Positions 2,887 to 51,052 are shown, counted from the stretch's first letter. The stretch is DNA of 64,000 bases from an uncultured Collinsella sp. (GCA_900542085.1 UQMK01000001.1:31707-95706); one strand, 5' to 3'. The notes: generated from the sequence alone by a model not told the origin. A program made the numbers and translations.

Positions 2887-3602
2887 TGCAAAAGGCTATC
2901 TATACCACCGTCGGGATCGACGAGCTCCTGTCGCATGTCCAGGCGCTCAAGGGCGTCGGCGCGCGCTTTGTGCAAATGCATGCCGAGCGCAACGTCGACG
3001 ACGGCACGTATCGCCTGGTCTATACGTTTATCAACGTTCGTGCTGCACAGGAGCAGATCGCTCAGGATGGCAGCTATGCGATCGAGAACCTGGTGGTCGA
3101 GGGCATCGACCAGTACCAGGAGATTCCGTCCATCAGCTCGTATTATCCGGCGGTATTCCCGTTTGAGAACGAGGCGCACGACCTGTTTGGGCTTGCCATT
3201 ACCGATATGCAGATCGACTTTAAGGGCTTTTTCTACCAGGTCTCGACTGCCGAGCCCATGAGCGTTATCACACCCGAGGTGAAGGCCGCGCGCGAGAAAG
3301 CCATGAAGGTCCGTGCCGCCGCAGAGGCCAAGGCGCGCAAGGCTGCGGCCGAAAAGGCCGCTGCCGCTGCTGCTGCGGGGGAGGGCGCCGCAGGCGCCGG
3401 CGATGCTGCGGGCGCTGCCGTCGCCCAGTCCGCTGCGGCTACCGGCTCCGATGCTCAGCACGATGGGGCTGCTGCGAAGGCCGCGCTCAAGGCTGCCGAG
3501 ATGGAGGCAAAGCTCGCAGCCATGGATCCCGAGAAAGCGGCCAAGGTCCGCGCGGCACTTGCCGCCAGGGCCGCCCGCGACAAGCAGAAAAAGGAGGCGT
3601 AA
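2886..3602 (+). CDS. echD: Ech hydrogenase subunit EchD (NuoC/HycE-N-like) with long Ala/Lys-rich C-terminal tail
   Basis: It has NuoC-like 30-kDa subunit homology (…YRLVYTFINV…FENEAHDLFGL…). Its start overlaps the previous stop in a TAATG arrangement. The last ~100 aa are an AKAAAE-rich low-complexity tail. Confidence 0.75.
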   Translation: MQKAIYTTVGIDELLSHVQALKGVGARFVQMHAERNVDDGTYRLVYTFINVRAAQEQIAQDGSYAIENLVVEGIDQYQEIPSISSYYPAVFPFENEAHDLFGLAITDMQIDFKGFFYQVSTAEPMSVITPEVKAAREKAMKVRAAAEAKARKAAAEKAAAAAAAGEGAAGAGDAAGAAVAQSAAATGSDAQHDGAAAKAALKAAEMEAKLAAMDPEKAAKVRAALAARAARDKQKKEA

Positions 3603-3607
3603 GGTCC

Positions 3608-4696
3608 ATGGCACATCGCTCCGTTATTCCGTTTGGCCCGCAACACCCGGTGCTGCCCGAGCCGCTTCATCTGGACCTGGTGATCGAGGACGACCGCGTC
3701 ATCGAGGCAATTCCGCAGATCGGCTTTGTGCACCGCGGACTCGAGAAGCTCACCGAAAAGCGCGACATGCACCAGTTTGGCTACATCGCCGAGCGCATCT
3801 GCGGCATCTGCGCCGTGGGCCACAGCTACGGCTATGCCAGCGCCTGCGAGCGCATGCTCGACATCGAGGTGCCCGGCCGCGCGCAGTATATCCGCACCAT
3901 TTTGCACGAGCTTTCGCGCATCCACTCGCATCTGCTGTGGCTGGGCCTGCTCGCCGATGCCTTTGGCTTCGAGGCGCTGTTCTATCGGTCGTGGACCCTG
4001 CGCGAGCAGATTCTCAAGATCTTCGAGAGCACGTGCGGTGGTCGCGTGATTCTGTCGATCAACGAGATCGGCGGCCTTAAGCACGACATTGAGGACTCCG
4101 AGCTGGCGGGTATTGTCCAGACGCTCGATGCCATGCGTCCCGACTACGAGGCCCTGGTGCATACGTTTTTGGACGACAATAGCTGCGGCGAGCGCCTGCA
4201 TGGCGTGGGCGTGATCAGCAAGAAGGACGCGCTGAATCTGTCGATGGTCGGCCCGTTCGGTCGCGCCTCGGGCGTGGATTACGACGTGCGCATGTTTGGC
4301 GACGGTGCCTATGCAGGCCTGGCAGCATTTGAGCCCATCGTTGCTACCGACGGCGACTGCTATGCCCGCTGCCAGGTGCGTTGTGCCGAGGTCACGCAGG
4401 CCATGGACATCATCAAGGAGCTTGTGGGCAAGATTCCGCACGACGGTATCGGCGGGCGCACCAAGCTCACGCCGGCCGACGGCGCGCGCGGCGAGGTTGT
4501 GATTGAGCAGCCGCGCGGCGAGGCGTACTACTATGTGCGCGGTAACGGCACCAAGAATCTGGACCGTTTTCGCGTGCGCACGCCGACGTCGCAAAATCTG
4601 GCGGGTCTGACGCATGCGTTGCAGGGCGTGCTCCTTGCCAACGTGCCCATGATTATCCTGACCATCGACCCCTGCATTAGCTGCACGGAAAGGTAG
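3608..4696 (+). CDS. echE: Ech hydrogenase large (catalytic NiFe) subunit, NuoD/HycE-like
   Basis: The N-terminal RICGICAVGHSYGYASACE motif and the C-terminal DPCISCTER motif are Ni-binding Cys pairs. The protein ends directly after the motif with no C-terminal extension. There is an AGGAGG RBS. Confidence 0.9.
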   Translation: MAHRSVIPFGPQHPVLPEPLHLDLVIEDDRVIEAIPQIGFVHRGLEKLTEKRDMHQFGYIAERICGICAVGHSYGYASACERMLDIEVPGRAQYIRTILHELSRIHSHLLWLGLLADAFGFEALFYRSWTLREQILKIFESTCGGRVILSINEIGGLKHDIEDSELAGIVQTLDAMRPDYEALVHTFLDDNSCGERLHGVGVISKKDALNLSMVGPFGRASGVDYDVRMFGDGAYAGLAAFEPIVATDGDCYARCQVRCAEVTQAMDIIKELVGKIPHDGIGGRTKLTPADGARGEVVIEQPRGEAYYYVRGNGTKNLDRFRVRTPTSQNLAGLTHALQGVLLANVPMIILTIDPCISCTER

Positions 4697-4703
4697 GCGC
4701 GGC

Positions 4704-5045
4704 ATGAGTTTACTGACATTTGCCAAGACGGCCTTGGGCTCTATGGTCAAGCAGCCGGTCACGGTGTGCTATCCGCAGGAAAAGCTCGTGGCGCCCGAGC
4801 GCCTGCGCGGGCACATCGTTAACGACATGGACGTGTGCATTTGCTGCGGCATGTGCGCGCGTCGCTGCCCGGCGGGCGCGCTTGCGGTCGATCGCAAGGG
4901 CGGTACCTGGTCGATCGATCCGTATGCCTGCGTGGTATGCGGCGAGTGTATCGAAAGCTGTCCCAAACACTGCCTGACTATGGACACCGCCCGCACCCCA
5001 GTCGCAGCGAACAAGACTCCCACGGTAGAAGCTAAGTCGGAGTAG
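4704..5045 (+). CDS. echF: Ech hydrogenase 2x[4Fe-4S] ferredoxin subunit (NuoI/HycF-like)
   Basis: It has two CxxCxxCxxxCP motifs (CICCGMCARRCP and CVVCGECIESCP). Confidence 0.85.
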   Translation: MSLLTFAKTALGSMVKQPVTVCYPQEKLVAPERLRGHIVNDMDVCICCGMCARRCPAGALAVDRKGGTWSIDPYACVVCGECIESCPKHCLTMDTARTPVAANKTPTVEAKSE

Positions 5046-5066
5046 CGCTGGAATAGAGCTGGAATA

Positions 5067-5100
5067 GGGGTCGGTGGGGCTAAATTGCCCCACCGGCCCC
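5067..5100 (+). terminator. GC-rich hairpin downstream of ech operon (14-bp stem, loop TAAATT), no clear T-tract
   Basis: GGGGTCGGTGGGGC / GCCCCACCGGCCCC form an inverted repeat with one G·U pair. Confidence 0.4.
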
Positions 5101-5127
5101 GCACTTAAATGCGCGGTTATGCTGCTG

Positions 5128-5284
5128 CGAACAAAACTATGCCGGTTTACTACGATAAATCGCCTACTCTCAACCACACCGCATTTGGCAAAACAAAAAC
5201 CGCAGGTAGACGGCTCGCAGTTTTGCGAAAAAGCCGCGTGTGATCGGCGACCACGTTTTTATCGTAGTAAACCGGCATAGTTTT
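5128..5284. repeat. MITE-like/palindromic unit 1: 28-bp terminal inverted repeats CAAAACTATGCCGGTTTACTACGATAAA flanking ~97 bp
   Basis: There is a forward copy at 5131-5158 and a reverse-complement copy at 5257-5284. Confidence 0.7.
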
Positions 5285-5387
5285 GAAATGCCACCATATC
5301 AGTACCAGCCCCTGATCTCCCGTGGACAGAGGGAAACGGATCATTTTGGTCCCGCGAGGCTTGCGGAGGCACCCGTGCAGGGCCGCC

Positions 5388-5549
5388 CGAACAAAACTAT
5401 GTCGGTTTACTACGATGAATTCGACATTCCCGACCATGACTGCATTTTTCTAAATATTGCAAGCGTTCTACCTGCGGTTTTGCAAGCGCGCAATTTACCG
5501 TGGTCGAAGGTGGGCGATTCATCGTAGTAAACCGGCATAGTTTTGAAAT
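5388..5549. repeat. MITE-like/palindromic unit 2: near-identical 29-bp inverted repeats (one C/T difference) flanking ~100 bp
   Basis: There is a forward copy at 5391-5419 and a reverse copy at 5520-5548. The left flank CGAACAAAAC and right flank TTGAAATG are shared with unit 1, which points to tandem duplication. Confidence 0.7.
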
Positions 5550-5605
5550 GGTATTAAATCGGTGGCAGCCATTTTGCTATGCCGGGGTGGTCGGTCGTTG
5601 GGTAA

Positions 5606-6235
5606 TTACCCTCGCAGGTAGGCGATGGCGATTTGCGTGCGGTTGCGCAGGCCCATCTTTGCCAGGATCGAGCTGATGTGGTTGCGCACGGTGCCTTCGC
5701 CCATGTAGGCGGTGGCGGCGATCTCCTTGTTGTCGAGGCCACGAGCGATGAGCTCGGCGACTTCGAACTCGCGGTCGGTCAGGCTGGCGAAGGCCGCGGG
5801 CCGGCGGAGCGTGTCCGCCTCGACGCCCGTTCCGTCAAAATCGATATCCTCGATCGCCTTACCCTCGAGTACGCGCTTGCCGTCCATGACTTGCACCAAC
5901 GCTGGCGGAATGGCGGCGACATCGGTCTTGATCAGGTAGCCGCGGGCGCCCAGTTTGAGCGCCGACACAATGTACTCGTCATCCGAGAATGTCGTCAGAA
6001 ACACCACGCGCGCCGCAGGGTCGCGCTCAAGGATTTCGCGTGCTGCCGAAAGTCCGTCACGCCCCGGCATCTGAATGTCGAGCAGCGCGATGTCGGGCGC
6101 GTGCTCGGCGTAGAGCGCGACCGCGTCGTCGCCATTGGCGCCGGTGCCCACTACCTCGATTTGCGGCTGGGCGCCCAGGATAATCTTGAGCGAATCGACC
6201 ACCAAGCGGTCGTCGTCGACAACGATGAGCCTCAT
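5606..6235 (-). CDS. LuxR/NarL-family response regulator
   Basis: There is a REC domain (…VVDDDRLV…LLDIQMPGRDG…) and a C-terminal LuxR HTH (LTDREFEVAELIARGLDNKEIA…TVRNHISSILAKMGLRNR). Confidence 0.9.
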   Translation of the reverse strand: MRLIVVDDDRLVVDSLKIILGAQPQIEVVGTGANGDDAVALYAEHAPDIALLDIQMPGRDGLSAAREILERDPAARVVFLTTFSDDEYIVSALKLGARGYLIKTDVAAIPPALVQVMDGKRVLEGKAIEDIDFDGTGVEADTLRRPAAFASLTDREFEVAELIARGLDNKEIAATAYMGEGTVRNHISSILAKMGLRNRTQIAIAYLRG

Positions 6236-7377
6236 CGGCCCTCATCTCCTTGCTGTTTGGGAACGGTGGCAAACACGCGCCAGCCGCTGGCGCCGGCACG
6301 CGGGCTGGCGGAGAAGGTGCCGCCAAGCGCCTCGATGCGCTCGCGCATGGAGGCAAGCCCCATGCCCTCCGCGGCGCCGCGGCTGCTTGCTTGGACCTCG
6401 CCCGCGCCATCGTCGGTAACGATGAGCTGGTAAAACGACGGATGCTCCATGCACCGTACGGTGACAGTATGGGCGCAAGCGTGGCGCATGGTGTTGGAGA
6501 GCGCCTCGCGCAGGACCGCCGCAAAGCAGTTGGCGACGTTTGCGGGTGCATGCTCGGCCATAACTTCAAGCTCAATCTGCGGACCGCCGTCCGAGCGCGC
6601 GCCTTCGACAATGCGTTCGAGCTGCACGGAAAGGTCGACGGCGTTGTCGTTGAGCGCGTGGACGCTGGTGCGCACAAGCTGGAGCGCCTCGTCAACCGTG
6701 CGTTTGACGTCGGCGAAATCGGCGGCAACCCTGGGCTCGTCGGCGTGCACGACGCGCAGGGCCTCGGTCTGCAGCGAGGCGCGCGTGAGCTGGTGGCCGA
6801 CGTTATCGTGGATCTCGCGCGCGATACGGGCGCGTTCGGCGAGTGTCGCGAGCTCGACTTCGTAGTCCTGACGATCGGCAAGGTCGCGGTTGCGCGCTTC
6901 GAGCACGAGGGCTCGTTCCTGCAGTTCGTCGCGGGTACGGCGCATGCGCTGCTGCTCGCGCTCCAACTGGGCGGTACGTAGCGATAGCAAGGTGGCGGCA
7001 ACCGAAAGGATGGCGGTCAGCAGGAGCGTTCGGGCGGTGAGCGCATCGGCGCGAAGGTCCGCGACGAGCGCAAAGACAAGGACGGAGCCAATGCCCAGCG
7101 CGACCCAGGCATGCTCGCGGTGCGCGCGCCGCGCGATGTCATAGAGGGCGAGAGGCGCAAACGGCACAAACGGCGGCGCAAAGACGGCCGCGATGATGTA
7201 AGCGTAACTCGTGGCCTTGCTTACACGGCGTGTGCGTTCCCCCTGTGCGATCTCGGCCAACGAGGTGGCAATAACGCCAAGGCAAAACGCCGCGACCAGG
7301 CGAGCGTCCACAGCAAGGCCCGTAGCGGCCGCAATGCAGCACGCCAGCACGATCGATTTGTCGAAAAGCCTGTTCAT
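6232..7377 (-). CDS. Sensor histidine kinase, HisKA_3 (NarX/LiaS/DesK-like), membrane-anchored
   Basis: It has N-terminal TM helices, an H-box (REIHDNVGHQLT) and an HATPase_c. Its stop overlaps the RR start (ATGA). The start was placed at MNRLF (7377). The ORF is open further upstream to 7539, so the start is uncertain. Confidence 0.8.
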   Translation of the reverse strand: MNRLFDKSIVLACCIAAATGLAVDARLVAAFCLGVIATSLAEIAQGERTRRVSKATSYAYIIAAVFAPPFVPFAPLALYDIARRAHREHAWVALGIGSVLVFALVADLRADALTARTLLLTAILSVAATLLSLRTAQLEREQQRMRRTRDELQERALVLEARNRDLADRQDYEVELATLAERARIAREIHDNVGHQLTRASLQTEALRVVHADEPRVAADFADVKRTVDEALQLVRTSVHALNDNAVDLSVQLERIVEGARSDGGPQIELEVMAEHAPANVANCFAAVLREALSNTMRHACAHTVTVRCMEHPSFYQLIVTDDGAGEVQASSRGAAEGMGLASMRERIEALGGTFSASPRAGASGWRVFATVPKQQGDEGR

Positions 7378-9710: not shown

Positions 9711-10902
9711 GACTGCGCTTCGCATGGCGCTGGCGCACCCGTTCTATCTGCTTATCTATACGGTGTTCATCTCGCTCATGGGCGTATTCATTGCGGCATC
9801 GGTGAGCTGGAACTCGTCGCAGCTCACCGAGTACAAGCCCTATGATGCCAACGTGATCGTGGTCGACCGCGACGACAGCGACCTTTCGCGTGCGCTTACC
9901 AAGCATCTGGGTTCGCGCTTTGAGCTGGTCACGGGCGTCGACGACGATACGTACGATCTTGCGGACGCGCTCTCCAAGAGCAACAGCGCCAAGGGTAGCG
10001 CCGACTGCGTGTTCTTTATCCCGGAGGGGTTTGAGGGCGACCTCGTTGCAGCCGCTCGCGCGGGGGAGTCCCTGCCCAAGCTCGATGTGACCTACGGTGC
10101 CGGCACCATGGCGGCGGCGCTTTCGTCTGCCGAGGCCTCGCGCTGGGTCTCGCTCGCGGGCGCTGCGGCCGCGCTTGAGCCCACTGCCTCCAACGGTGAC
10201 GTCGCCAAGGCTGCCGATCATGCGGCCGCGGAGCGTGCCAAGGTCGAGATCGAGCAGGTCAAGGTTGACTCGACTGCCGCCGCCACGCTCGAGTCGTACT
10301 TCAACTTTGGCGCGTACGCGATTATATCGTCGGTCATCGTGTCGGTGGGGCTGGTGTTCTCGGGCATGAACGAGCCCGAGCGCGTGCGTCGTATGGATGC
10401 CGGCCCAATCTCCGAGCGCCAGCGTTCGCTTGCCGTGTTTGCGGCCGCCGCCGTACTCACCGTCTGCATCTGGTTTGTGTCGAGCATGATGGGCGTCGTG
10501 GGCTTTGCCGGCGCGGTCGCCGAGGTCGGCGTGGGCCGTGTGTGCCTGGCGCTGGCGGCGACGTTTGCCCTTGCGTGCACGCCTCTGGCCGTTGGCTTTG
10601 CCCTTTCGAGCCTGGGTGCGCGCGAGGAGCTGCTCAACGGCGTGGGCAACCTGCTCGGCATGCTCATGACGTTTTTGGGCGGCGCCTGGATGCCGCTGTC
10701 GCTCATGGGCTCGGCCGTGCAGACCGTTGCGCATTTTGTGCCGACGTTTTGGGTGAACGACGCGATCAGCAAGGCGCTCGCCGCGGACCTGACGTCCGCC
10801 GTGCTGGGGGACATCGCCTGCGACCTGGGCGTCACGGTGCTCTTCGCCGTCGCCATCGCCGCCGCAGGCCTGGCCCTCGCACGCGCCAAAACCCGCGCCT
10901 AG
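9697..10902 (+). CDS. ABC-2 family transporter permease (second permease)
   Basis: It is a polytopic membrane protein. A GGAAGGAG RBS lies before MSTFKTAL. Confidence 0.7.
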   Translation: MSTFKTALRMALAHPFYLLIYTVFISLMGVFIAASVSWNSSQLTEYKPYDANVIVVDRDDSDLSRALTKHLGSRFELVTGVDDDTYDLADALSKSNSAKGSADCVFFIPEGFEGDLVAAARAGESLPKLDVTYGAGTMAAALSSAEASRWVSLAGAAAALEPTASNGDVAKAADHAAAERAKVEIEQVKVDSTAAATLESYFNFGAYAIISSVIVSVGLVFSGMNEPERVRRMDAGPISERQRSLAVFAAAAVLTVCIWFVSSMMGVVGFAGAVAEVGVGRVCLALAATFALACTPLAVGFALSSLGAREELLNGVGNLLGMLMTFLGGAWMPLSLMGSAVQTVAHFVPTFWVNDAISKALAADLTSAVLGDIACDLGVTVLFAVAIAAAGLALARAKTRA

Positions 10903-11340
10903 CCACCTAGTCATCGGGGACGTTCTTAAACGACTAGTCATCGGGGACAGTCTTTGCCGATTCGCCGGCTCGCCGGCCGCGTTGGCAAGGACTGTCCCTA
11001 TCTGCCGGCAGAAAAGGAACGTCCCCAGCTGTTGGGTGGCGAGGCACTCATTTAAGTCTGTCCCCAATGAGTAGCATCGGATTTCACCGTGTTGGGCGAC
11101 ATCGCCTGCGACCTAGGCGTCACGGTGCTCTTTGCCGTGGCCATCGCCGCCGCAGGCCTCGCCCTCGCACGCGCCAAATTCCGCGTCTAGCCACCTAGTC
11201 ATTGGTCATTGGGGACATTCTTAAACGACTGGTCATTCAAGAACGTCCCCAATGACTAGTCGTCATTTAAGAACTCCCCCAATGACTGGTCTGAAATAAA
11301 TCCCCGGCCTCGCTCCAAAATAGTTCGCCAAGGTTTACTA
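10903..11340. repeat. Nest of MITE/REP-like units (TAGTCATYGGGGACRTTCTTAAAYGAC and inverted copies) containing a 103-bp duplicated copy of the permease gene 3' end (11088-11190 ≈ 10800-10902)
   Basis: There are multiple copies in both orientations at 10907-10950, 10995-11020, 11041-11075 and 11191-11290. The duplicated gene tail encodes VLGDIACDLGVTVLFAVAIAAAGLALARAK(F/T)R. Confidence 0.75.
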
Positions 11341-16188: not shown

Positions 16189-16228
16189 AAAAGCCGCCCG
16201 TGAGCACAGTGTCCACGGGCGGCTTTTC
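16189..16228. terminator. Bidirectional intrinsic terminator between convergent genes
   Basis: AAAAGCCGCCCGTG…CACGGGCGGCTTTT is a perfect inverted repeat flanked by A and T tracts. Confidence 0.75.
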
Positions 16229-16392
16229 GGAAGTATGCGGCAAATTTCGAGATCGCCGAGCACACGACATTTTTTGGCAACAAAACCCCTGATAAATTGT
16301 TGGTAAAACTGCGGTCTGGTCGGCAGTTCCAGATTTTGCCGCATACTTCCGAAAATAGGGGGTCAGATAAAGCCCCAGACGTTGCTTTTTAC

Positions 16393-32675: not shown

Positions 32676-32818
32676 TGTCTCGATCTGTAACATCTAGCGG
32701 GCTAAATCGTCTCTACCTGTTACAGATTTAGACAAACTGCAGGGGACAGGCCGAACAATCTCAATCTGTAACGCCAGGCCCGGTTTTGGCGGCCTAGCTG
32801 TTACAGATCGAGACAAAC
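32676..32818. promoter_or_regulatory. Array of four ~17-bp TGTCTCGATCTGTAACA-like motifs in alternating orientation (operator-like) upstream of the GH1 glucosidase gene
   Basis: Copies lie at 32676-32692 (forward), 32718-32736 (reverse), 32756-32775 (forward, degenerate) and 32798-32818 (reverse). The core ATCTGTAACA/TGTTACAGAT is palindromic. Confidence 0.5.
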
Positions 32819-50726: not shown

Positions 50727-51052
50727 CCGAACTCCCACACTCGGCAAACCTGCCAAAAAGGGACAGGTTTATTTTGGCACGTTTCGGTCGGTATCAGGAA
50801 GTGTCAGGGGCGGGGCGGCGGCGGTCTGTGGGCGCGAAAAGAAGTGTCGGGTTTGGCGTGCCCGCTTCTGCCCGTCCCGTGCGCAGGCGATACTCAGCTT
50901 ATCGACCCGCGATGCAAAGGAGATACTCATCCCACGAGCACTACCGGGAAGGGCTTGCGATTCGAGCCCTCACCTTAGCAATTTGATCATTTGGCACTAT
51001 AATCACCATAGGCATGCGCATAACGTTGCGCTTAATCAAGAGGAGAAAACAT

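Follow-up and report, generated by a model that had tools for sequence, protein, structure and literature searches.

REPINs and BIMEs, which we take to be doublets and mosaic clusters of the REP sequences of Proteobacteria, tied to RAYT transposases, would appear to be the closest described counterparts of the repeats reported here. The units of BIMEs are the REP or PU sequences of Enterobacteria, which bind IHF or gyrase; a relationship in sequence with the Collinsella units is not expected. From Enterobacteria the ERIC or IRU sequences are also known, i.e., imperfect palindromes of ~127 bp in transcribed intergenic regions, and from Neisseria the Correia elements, which are MITEs of ~100–155 bp and have inverted repeats of 26 nt. 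Descriptions of REPINs, of RAYTs and of clusters of REPs are available (PMC3116915, PMC3337134, PMC3733652). Some tyrosine transposases (TIRYTs) are flanked by TIR repeats instead of GTAG REPs, and moderately abundant TIR families are present in some genomes; the phyla given for GTAG and CGTC repeats do not include Actinomycetota (PMC3733652). A description of intergenic repeats of Collinsella was not found in the literature searched.

The DNA analysed here (the window) is a stretch of 64,000 nucleotides from an uncultured Collinsella sp. (GCA_900542085.1 UQMK01000001.1:31707-95706). It contains, on the + strand, an ech-type hydrogenase operon, in which the gene for the NiFe-hydrogenase large subunit precedes an ORF for a 4Fe-4S subunit ending at 5045, and, on the - strand, a response regulator gene with Response_reg and GerE domains (5606-6235), preceded by a gene for a HisKA_3 kinase. 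An array of inverted repeats is set between the convergent 3' ends of these genes at 5045 (+) and 5606 (-), in agreement with a preliminary description of this DNA, which had placed it between the ech operon and a two-component system. Four matches to the 28-mer CAAAACTATGCCGGTTTACTACGATAAA, at 5132-5159 (+, 0 mismatches), 5258-5285 (-, 0), 5392-5419 (+, 2) and 5518-5545 (-, 1), alternate between the strands, where zero matches were expected by chance from shuffled sequence; the preliminary description had reported the same alternation, with starts that were 1-2 bases off. The matches bound two palindromic units of 154 bp, designated U1 (5132..5285, + strand) and U2 (5392..5545, - strand), the starts of which are 260 bp apart. 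The arms of U1 (5132-5159 and 5258-5285) have a length of 28 nt, are 100% complementary and enclose 98 nt; those of U2 (5392-5420 and 5517-5545) have a length of 29 nt, are 97% complementary and enclose 96 nt. Two units with inverted ends of 28–29 bp and interiors of ~100 bp had thus been recognized correctly.

U1 matches the profile HMM of the repeat family described below, carries arms of subtype 1 and shows inner pairing in the region of CAACCACAC and GTGTGATCG. Its asymmetric core AAAACCGCAGGTAGA (5196..5210, +) is invariant and represents the most conserved block of the family outside the arms. U2, which has 22 near-identical orthologues, carries arms of the same subtype and the family core sequence on the - strand (5467-5481), i.e., the core-forward strand is + in U1 and - in U2. 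The linker between the units (5286..5391), for which homologous linkers exist in the genome L028 and in a module at the argS-rho locus, contains a tail motif AAATGCCACCATATCAGTACCAGCC (5286-5310, +) and a second motif GGGAAACGGATCATTTTG (5331-5348, +), both of which recur beside elements at other loci. U2 is followed by the tail motif AAATGGTATTAAATCGGTGGCAGCC (5546..5570, +) as a direct repeat, and the sequence thereafter (TTTTGCTATGCCGGGGTGGTCGG, 5572-5597) resembles what may be the vestige of a further arm. Upstream of the array, just past the stop codon of the ech operon, a GC-rich inverted repeat, GGGGTCGGTGGGGC / GCCCCACCGGCCCC (5067..5100, +), is presumed to be the 3' hairpin of this operon; it is conserved in orthologous loci, where it flanks the first unit on the left.

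Relative to U1, the interior of U2 is inverted throughout (reverse complement, 90 nt at 73% identity; outer parts, 46 nt at 89%). An inverted 14-mer shared by the interiors, as noted before, is therefore real, but it understated an inversion of the whole interior. The flanks of both units are direct, also as reported, with CGAA on the left and AAATG... on the right, extending to ~25 nt; including the arm and the right flank, the direct repeat amounts to 53 nt at 83%. Flipping of the 98-bp interior by a site-specific recombinase would explain this combination of direct flanks and inverted interiors, and, across loci, the interior indeed occurs in either orientation relative to the outer motifs. 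An inverton is nevertheless very improbable. In a comparison of consensus assemblies the orientation was fixed within each orthologous locus, with flanks in the same sense in flank clusters 1 (40 elements), 2 (14), 4, 5 and 6, which argues against an invertible switch. Furthermore, a simple scan of the region yielded no promoter-like sites, either inside or outside the units, no recombinase was present among the neighbouring genes examined, and the units are situated at the 3' ends of genes.

U1 and U2 are members of a family of 154-bp non-coding hairpin repeats of Collinsella, which is REP/BIME/MITE-like in kind. Scanning of public genomes (one genome per species) with a 20-mer from the arm gave at least 120 genome stretches, assigned to Collinsella, Coriobacteriaceae or metagenome bins, and among the matches listed the arm was confined to Collinsella. 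At least 164 elements of 154±1 bp were recovered from roughly ten intergenic loci, most of which adjoin the 3' end of a gene. Among the matches listed, exactly 154 bp were found in 113 of 125 complete elements, and the flanks grouped into seven clusters; further loci, detected by profile search among other means, were L054, L111, L121 and position 16224 of the window. Since the arms recur at roughly ten loci, they belong to a low-copy dispersed family and are not a feature of one locus. Their number is far below that usual for families of REPs or MITEs; a 900-kb replicon of C. aerofaciens carries elements at one place alone. This record (NZ_OY725717.1) is labelled as a plasmid, yet it carries argS, rho and suf genes.

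In the consensus the arms are highly conserved at positions 1-31 and 124-154, followed inwards by the pair GACCAC/GTGGTC and the asymmetric block AAAACCGCAGGTAGA. Three arm subtypes can be distinguished (CAAAACTATGCCGGTTTACTACGAT; CAAAACTATGCCGGATTACGGGGCT; ACGAAATGGGCCCATCTACTACGTTT), and in every subtype a change on one arm is matched on the other. Four clusters lie between convergent 3' ends (ech operon and response regulator, RecN and RpiR, PTS-IIB and aldose epimerase, Fe-S protein and hydrolase), two between genes on the same strand (argS-rho, and formate-tetrahydrofolate ligase, FTHFS, with a Zn-ribbon gene), and another site is located upstream of an ABC-F gene. The window itself contains a diverged third member (16224..16355, +) with arms TTTTCGGAAGTATGCGGCAAA, inner pairing of GAGCAC with GGTCGG and a core-like AAAACCCCTGATAAA; the match to the family in nhmmer was weak (E 9e-4), and the element was also detected as an inverted repeat. 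It directly follows a terminator hairpin between convergent genes for an Fe-S protein and an alpha/beta-hydrolase.

These contexts bear on the suggestion that the four 28-mers are an array of operators for the adjacent LuxR-type response regulator. The nearness of the regulator gene and the palindromic, evenly spaced sites would agree with such an array. However, the sites are positioned past the stop codon of the regulator gene, between convergent 3' ends, and the same arms occur at argS-rho, RecN/RpiR, PTS/epimerase, FTHFS and other loci, i.e., at about ten unrelated places, with a LuxR-type regulator absent beside every other element locus examined; binding sites are therefore rejected as an explanation. 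GerE-type boxes are, moreover, unlike an arm of 28-31 nt within a hairpin of 154 nt. The chance that the sites are operators is considered negligible, and the two-component system beside the array is not implicated.

At the ech-regulator locus, 16 genomes possessed both anchor genes; one unit was found in 2, two units in 4 (the window being counted here) and three units in 10 of them. The unit next to the ech operon is of subtype 1 in the window and of subtype 2 in L028, a subtype-2 unit is present at the regulator-proximal end in L112 and L115, and the unit in L117 is chimeric, with one arm from each of two subtypes. The conserved linker motifs AAATGGCAYY...CAGCC and GGAAAACGGATCATTTTG were also found beside units at other loci. 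A module of ~400 bp, consisting of a subtype-2 unit, a linker and a subtype-3 unit, is homologous between the ech-regulator locus in L028 and argS-rho in C. aerofaciens TSDC17.2-1.1. At argS-rho, a lone subtype-1 unit with the opposite orientation was found in other lineages. These loci thus show the traits of BIME-type mosaics, namely palindromic units of several types and orientations, conserved linkers and variable numbers of units, and, judged by this comparison, modular turnover at the two loci matches the behaviour described for BIME and REP clusters.

Folding of the units as RNA gave -68.1 kcal/mol for U1 (z -9.0) and -72.9 kcal/mol for U2 (z -8.9), and in the predicted fold of a transcript across both units U1 can pair with U2. 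In 35 non-redundant elements, 93% of the 29 consensus pairs were paired, compared to 79% in shuffled and 31-45% in slid controls, and double-sided changes were found at 18 of the 29. On the core-forward strand (AAAACCGCAGGTAGA) the ratio of G.U to A.C was 77:37, a bias which is present in all three subtypes and which points to selection on pairing in a single strand, either RNA or single-stranded DNA. At argS-rho (cluster 1, 27 aligned loci) the nucleotide diversity (pi) was 0.022-0.026 for the arms and 0.000 for the core, compared to 0.134 for third codon positions of argS and 0.09 for flanking intergenic DNA. For U2 and 25 orthologues the values were 0.07 (arms), 0.047 (core) and 0.13-0.17 (interior), with 0.185 at third positions of the regulator gene. 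Arms and 15-nt core vary 2.5-5 times less than third codon positions of neighbouring genes, or differ from them by more; thus, they appear to be held by selection or homogenisation, while the rest of the unit drifts. The possibility of a coding unit was considered as well; ORFs starting from the ATG of the arm are erratic in length (7 to 50 codons), and the unit is therefore not coding.

Such data could be expected of a structured RNA maintained by the host, either a cis-acting hairpin in 3'-UTRs or a small RNA (e.g., a signal for processing or stability, a loop bound by a protein, or a seed), in which arms and 15-nt apical core would be selected at the RNA level and paralogues would stem from old duplications instead of mobility. 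Low variability of arms and core, compensatory changes, the strand-specific excess of G.U over A.C, the fixed position across many species-level genomes and the location just downstream of genes are all in favour. On the other hand, a consistent rule for the orientation relative to neighbouring genes was not found among the loci (it is undecidable between convergent genes): the element is reversed with respect to the adjacent gene after FTHFS and differs between lineages at argS-rho. Gain, loss, swapping and chimerism of units at one locus, and paralogues which conserve the sequence of the arms, not pairing alone, also speak against this explanation, as does the promoter scan mentioned above, and the bias, seen as G.T, is equally expected from a substrate of single-stranded DNA. 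A search of Rfam 15 over 4500-6500 at E<=1 gave no match other than a chance one to BTH_s19 within the regulator gene. All in all, a host-maintained RNA is a possible, rather doubtful origin of the family. The reverse complement of the core (U2 core, 5467-5481, - strand) was seen to contain ACCTGCGGTT, and the linker motif at 5331-5348 GGATCA; both strings are also part of the 16S rRNA of E. coli, near its 3' terminus, and this agreement, including the match of the core reverse complement to 10 nt of the 3' helix of 16S rRNA, is probably due to chance.

The explanation preferred here, with a probability of about 0.6, is a family of dispersed hairpin repeats, in which each unit is a long imperfect palindrome composed of arms of 28-31 nt, the inner GACCAC/GTGGTC, an apical hairpin flanked by A/T and an asymmetric core of 15 nt. 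The family occupies few intergenic sites, most of them past the 3' end of a gene and many between convergent genes. Some of the sites are mosaics of mixed arm subtypes and conserved linkers, with number, order and orientation varying between genomes. Spreading and reshuffling may have proceeded via a single-stranded hairpin form and recombination between shared ends. Upon read-through of either convergent operon, each unit should fold into a stable hairpin of ~150 nt and the pair of U1 and U2 into a super-hairpin of ~414 nt, by which read-through would be blocked or terminated and the 3' ends of upstream mRNAs would be protected. Most likely, the effect in place would be that of a structural barrier and 3'-end hairpin between convergent operons. 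A hairpin or terminator acting on the ech transcript, which the preliminary description had raised, is a possible consequence of the predicted structure. The only terminator-like site from a simple scan of the region was a weak one within U1 (- strand); subtype-3 units elsewhere possess a perfect apex of A-tract, stem and T-tract (AAAACCGCAGG...CCTGCGGTTTT).

The array had also been interpreted as a tandem duplication of a MITE-like element. A classical MITE would be a deletion derivative of an insertion sequence with a DDE transposase, mobilised in trans via the 28-nt ends, and the array would have arisen by repeated insertion at CGAA^AAATGGCA. Much of this picture agrees with the data: the element is short, non-coding, dispersed and uniform in size, has perfect terminal inverted repeats (arms 28-31 nt), may point either way with respect to a flank motif that recurs, and forms tandem arrays with varying copy number; subfamilies of arms would be expected if transposases differed. 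A plain tandem duplication did not hold, since U2 is inverted inside direct flanks and other genomes have 1 or 3 units with differing arm subtypes. The proposed search for other copies yielded the roughly ten Collinsella loci described above, but the ends of the units at ten loci examined showed no direct repeat, i.e., no target-site duplication. In view of this result and the low copy number, a classical MITE seems unlikely.

Several further observations weigh against a classical MITE. Pairs of arms with a spacing like that of an insertion sequence, enclosing a gene-sized segment, were absent from ~0.9 Mb of Collinsella loci. In a plasmid collection only Collinsella itself was matched, and in a phage collection nothing; viral contigs gave 1 match. 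The palindrome spans the whole unit, not the ends alone. Copies within each group of 90% identity all stem from one locus, and thus there is no sign of a recent transposition. At two of the about ten loci, units differ in number and type, and a clean pair of filled and empty sites was not encountered there; linker and flank motifs almost never occurred without an element, in DNA which had been sampled for carrying it. The genome L043, the sole one of its kind from a search for joined flanks, lacks the middle unit and has 7-bp repeats, which fits an empty site and a deletion between the 7-bp repeats equally well. More distant lineages are without elements at argS-rho, with spacers too diverged for defining the boundaries of an insertion. 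We consider descent from a DDE-type insertion sequence unlikely.

For the dispersed hairpin family preferred here, a mobiliser of a different type may be considered. A tblastn search with an approximate E. coli RAYT sequence as the query, which served as a lead only, matched an ORF of 252 amino acids with carD on one side and an HD-domain gene on the other, at ~3 kb from the elements of argS-rho. The gene encodes a RAYT-like Y1 (HUH) transposase and was found in L014 (3782-4540) and L123 (5001-5759), and it or a homologue also in L133, L134, L137 and L139; it is absent from the 64-kb window. The protein scored 33 bits with Pfam Y1_Tnp (cut-off 23), 75.4 bits with NCBIfam REP_Tyr_transpos, which is below the cut-off of 80, and 16 bits with IS200; its only match in the PDB was 4ER8 (TnpArep). 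It contains an HUH motif (NHIHLL), a tyrosine motif (RYIHLNP) and a C-terminal extension resembling a helix-turn-helix; an extension of this kind has been reported for one subclass of RAYTs (PMC6006769).

At the carD/HD site the gene was present in 5 of ~25 genomes and absent from 20. All copies retrieved were at one fixed locus, and homologues of 67%, 52% and 48% identity keep the gene neighbourhood; the pattern thus fits a vertically inherited single-copy RAYT and not a multi-copy insertion sequence. A homologue of 46% identity is situated at another locus (L139) and is flanked by inverted hairpin repeats, too. The flanks of the homologues consist of inverted hairpin repeats of 43-68 nt, not of the 154-bp unit; some of them carry a core-like ACCGCAGGTAAAAC, and one lineage has, after the gene, an inverted doublet of 122 bp, the arms of which contain ACCGCAGGTAAAACCTGCC, resembling the family core.

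These findings are suggestive of the RAYT-like Y1 transposase as a candidate mobiliser of the 154-bp units, at odds that are rather low; this enzyme of some Collinsella genomes would be the most plausible original mobiliser. A more specific proposal, which is tentative and on balance unlikely, states that the units are REPIN-like partners of the HTH-extended RAYT-like Y1 near argS and carD, in a vertically inherited system of REPIN-RAYT type, in which the apical GCAGGTAG core would be the site of cleavage or recognition on one strand and the units, retained as hairpins, would serve the host at operon ends.

Some other repeats and a second transposase gene were observed along the way. A hairpin, AACCTGCCAAAAAGGGACAGGTTTATTTTGGCA, at 50745-50790 of the window corresponds to the ~45-nt unit which flanks, in inverted arrangement, the RAYT-like gene in other Collinsella genomes; a Y1 gene was not present near this position. 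C. aerofaciens TSDC17.2-1.1 (L142, NZ_OY725717.1) has a second Y1 paralogue at 3486-4298, which is 35% identical to the first and is located ~13 kb from argS, with nifU and sufU as its neighbours; inverted repeats flanking this gene were not found. A short repeat, GTCATTGGGGACGTTCTTAAACGAC, forms a cluster of direct and inverted copies at 10897-11290 of the window (8 in the window, 60 in ~1 Mb of Collinsella loci) and occurs also beside argS-rho elements. A unit of ~140 bp at 32676-32815 of the window, with inverted arms of 31 nt (TGTCTCGATCTGTAACATCTAG...), represents probably a separate repeat family; its arm has three copies in the window, which is one of 8 searched sequences that contain it. 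The motif ACGGATCATTT(T)G (L122, 2873-2900; L123, ~1950-1966, - strand; L021, ~2640-2655; L111, ~1063-1078) is located shortly past the stop codons of the unrelated genes argS, PTS-IIB and FTHFS, and within linkers of the array as well; possibly, it represents a 3'-UTR signal in its own right.

Collinsella is among the most prevalent actinobacterial genera of the human gut. A defined consensus, together with subtypes and loci, should prevent misannotation of the repeats as small ORFs, operators or novel RNAs, and the number and order of units at the ech-regulator and argS-rho loci, which differ between lineages, could be used for strain typing. Constraint on the arms and the 15-nt core raises the question of what recognises them, be it a ribonuclease, a Y1 transposase or some other protein. 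If the link to RAYT were true, biology of the REPIN type would reach a new phylum, Actinomycetota, in a dominant genus of the human gut.

Compared with the systems introduced above, the Collinsella units differ from Correia elements, which duplicate a TA at the target and contain IHF sites as well as promoter elements, in that neither a duplication nor a promoter-like site was found; size, long terminal inverted repeats, the position next to genes and RNA hairpins are similar. As in TIRYTs, the Y1 gene of Collinsella is flanked by inverted repeats (43-68 nt) which are not GTAG REPs, but these share with the 154-bp units only the core-like motif of ~14 nt. ERIC sequences resemble the units in size class, in being imperfect palindromes over the whole length and in the intergenic site; there is, however, no relationship in sequence, including Rfam, the phylum is a different one, and mosaic arrays and arm subtypes, as present in Collinsella, are not known as features of ERIC. 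In contrast to REP sequences, the arms are not hairpins of 20-40 nt tagged by GTAG or CGTC: an arm is self-complementary only at CCGG, and GTAG occurs inside the right arm (CGTAGTA) and the core (GGTAGA), never as a terminal tag. Unlike REPINs, the units are far longer (154 bp) and have an asymmetric invariant core, their copies number tens at most instead of hundreds, and the hairpin repeat beside the RAYT-like gene, which most genomes lack at its site, is a different one. Thus, the family departs from a classical MITE, since neither a duplication at the ten loci examined nor a partner in ~0.9 Mb of Collinsella loci and in the plasmid, phage and viral collections was found, and fails the canonical tests for REPs, because of the untagged arms and the otherwise flanked RAYT-like gene. 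What is shared with REPINs and BIMEs are extragenic inverted doublets which form one long hairpin and are not bordered by target-site duplications, a long vertical inheritance at loci that stay the same, mostly after coding regions, an alternation of types and orientations with conserved linkers and strain-variable numbers of units, and a single-locus RAYT-like gene. By this comparison, the architecture is that of repeats of REPIN/BIME type or ERIC type rather than that of regulator binding sites; the 154-bp family is new to the literature searched, and it represents an ordinary kind of bacterial repeat in a new lineage.
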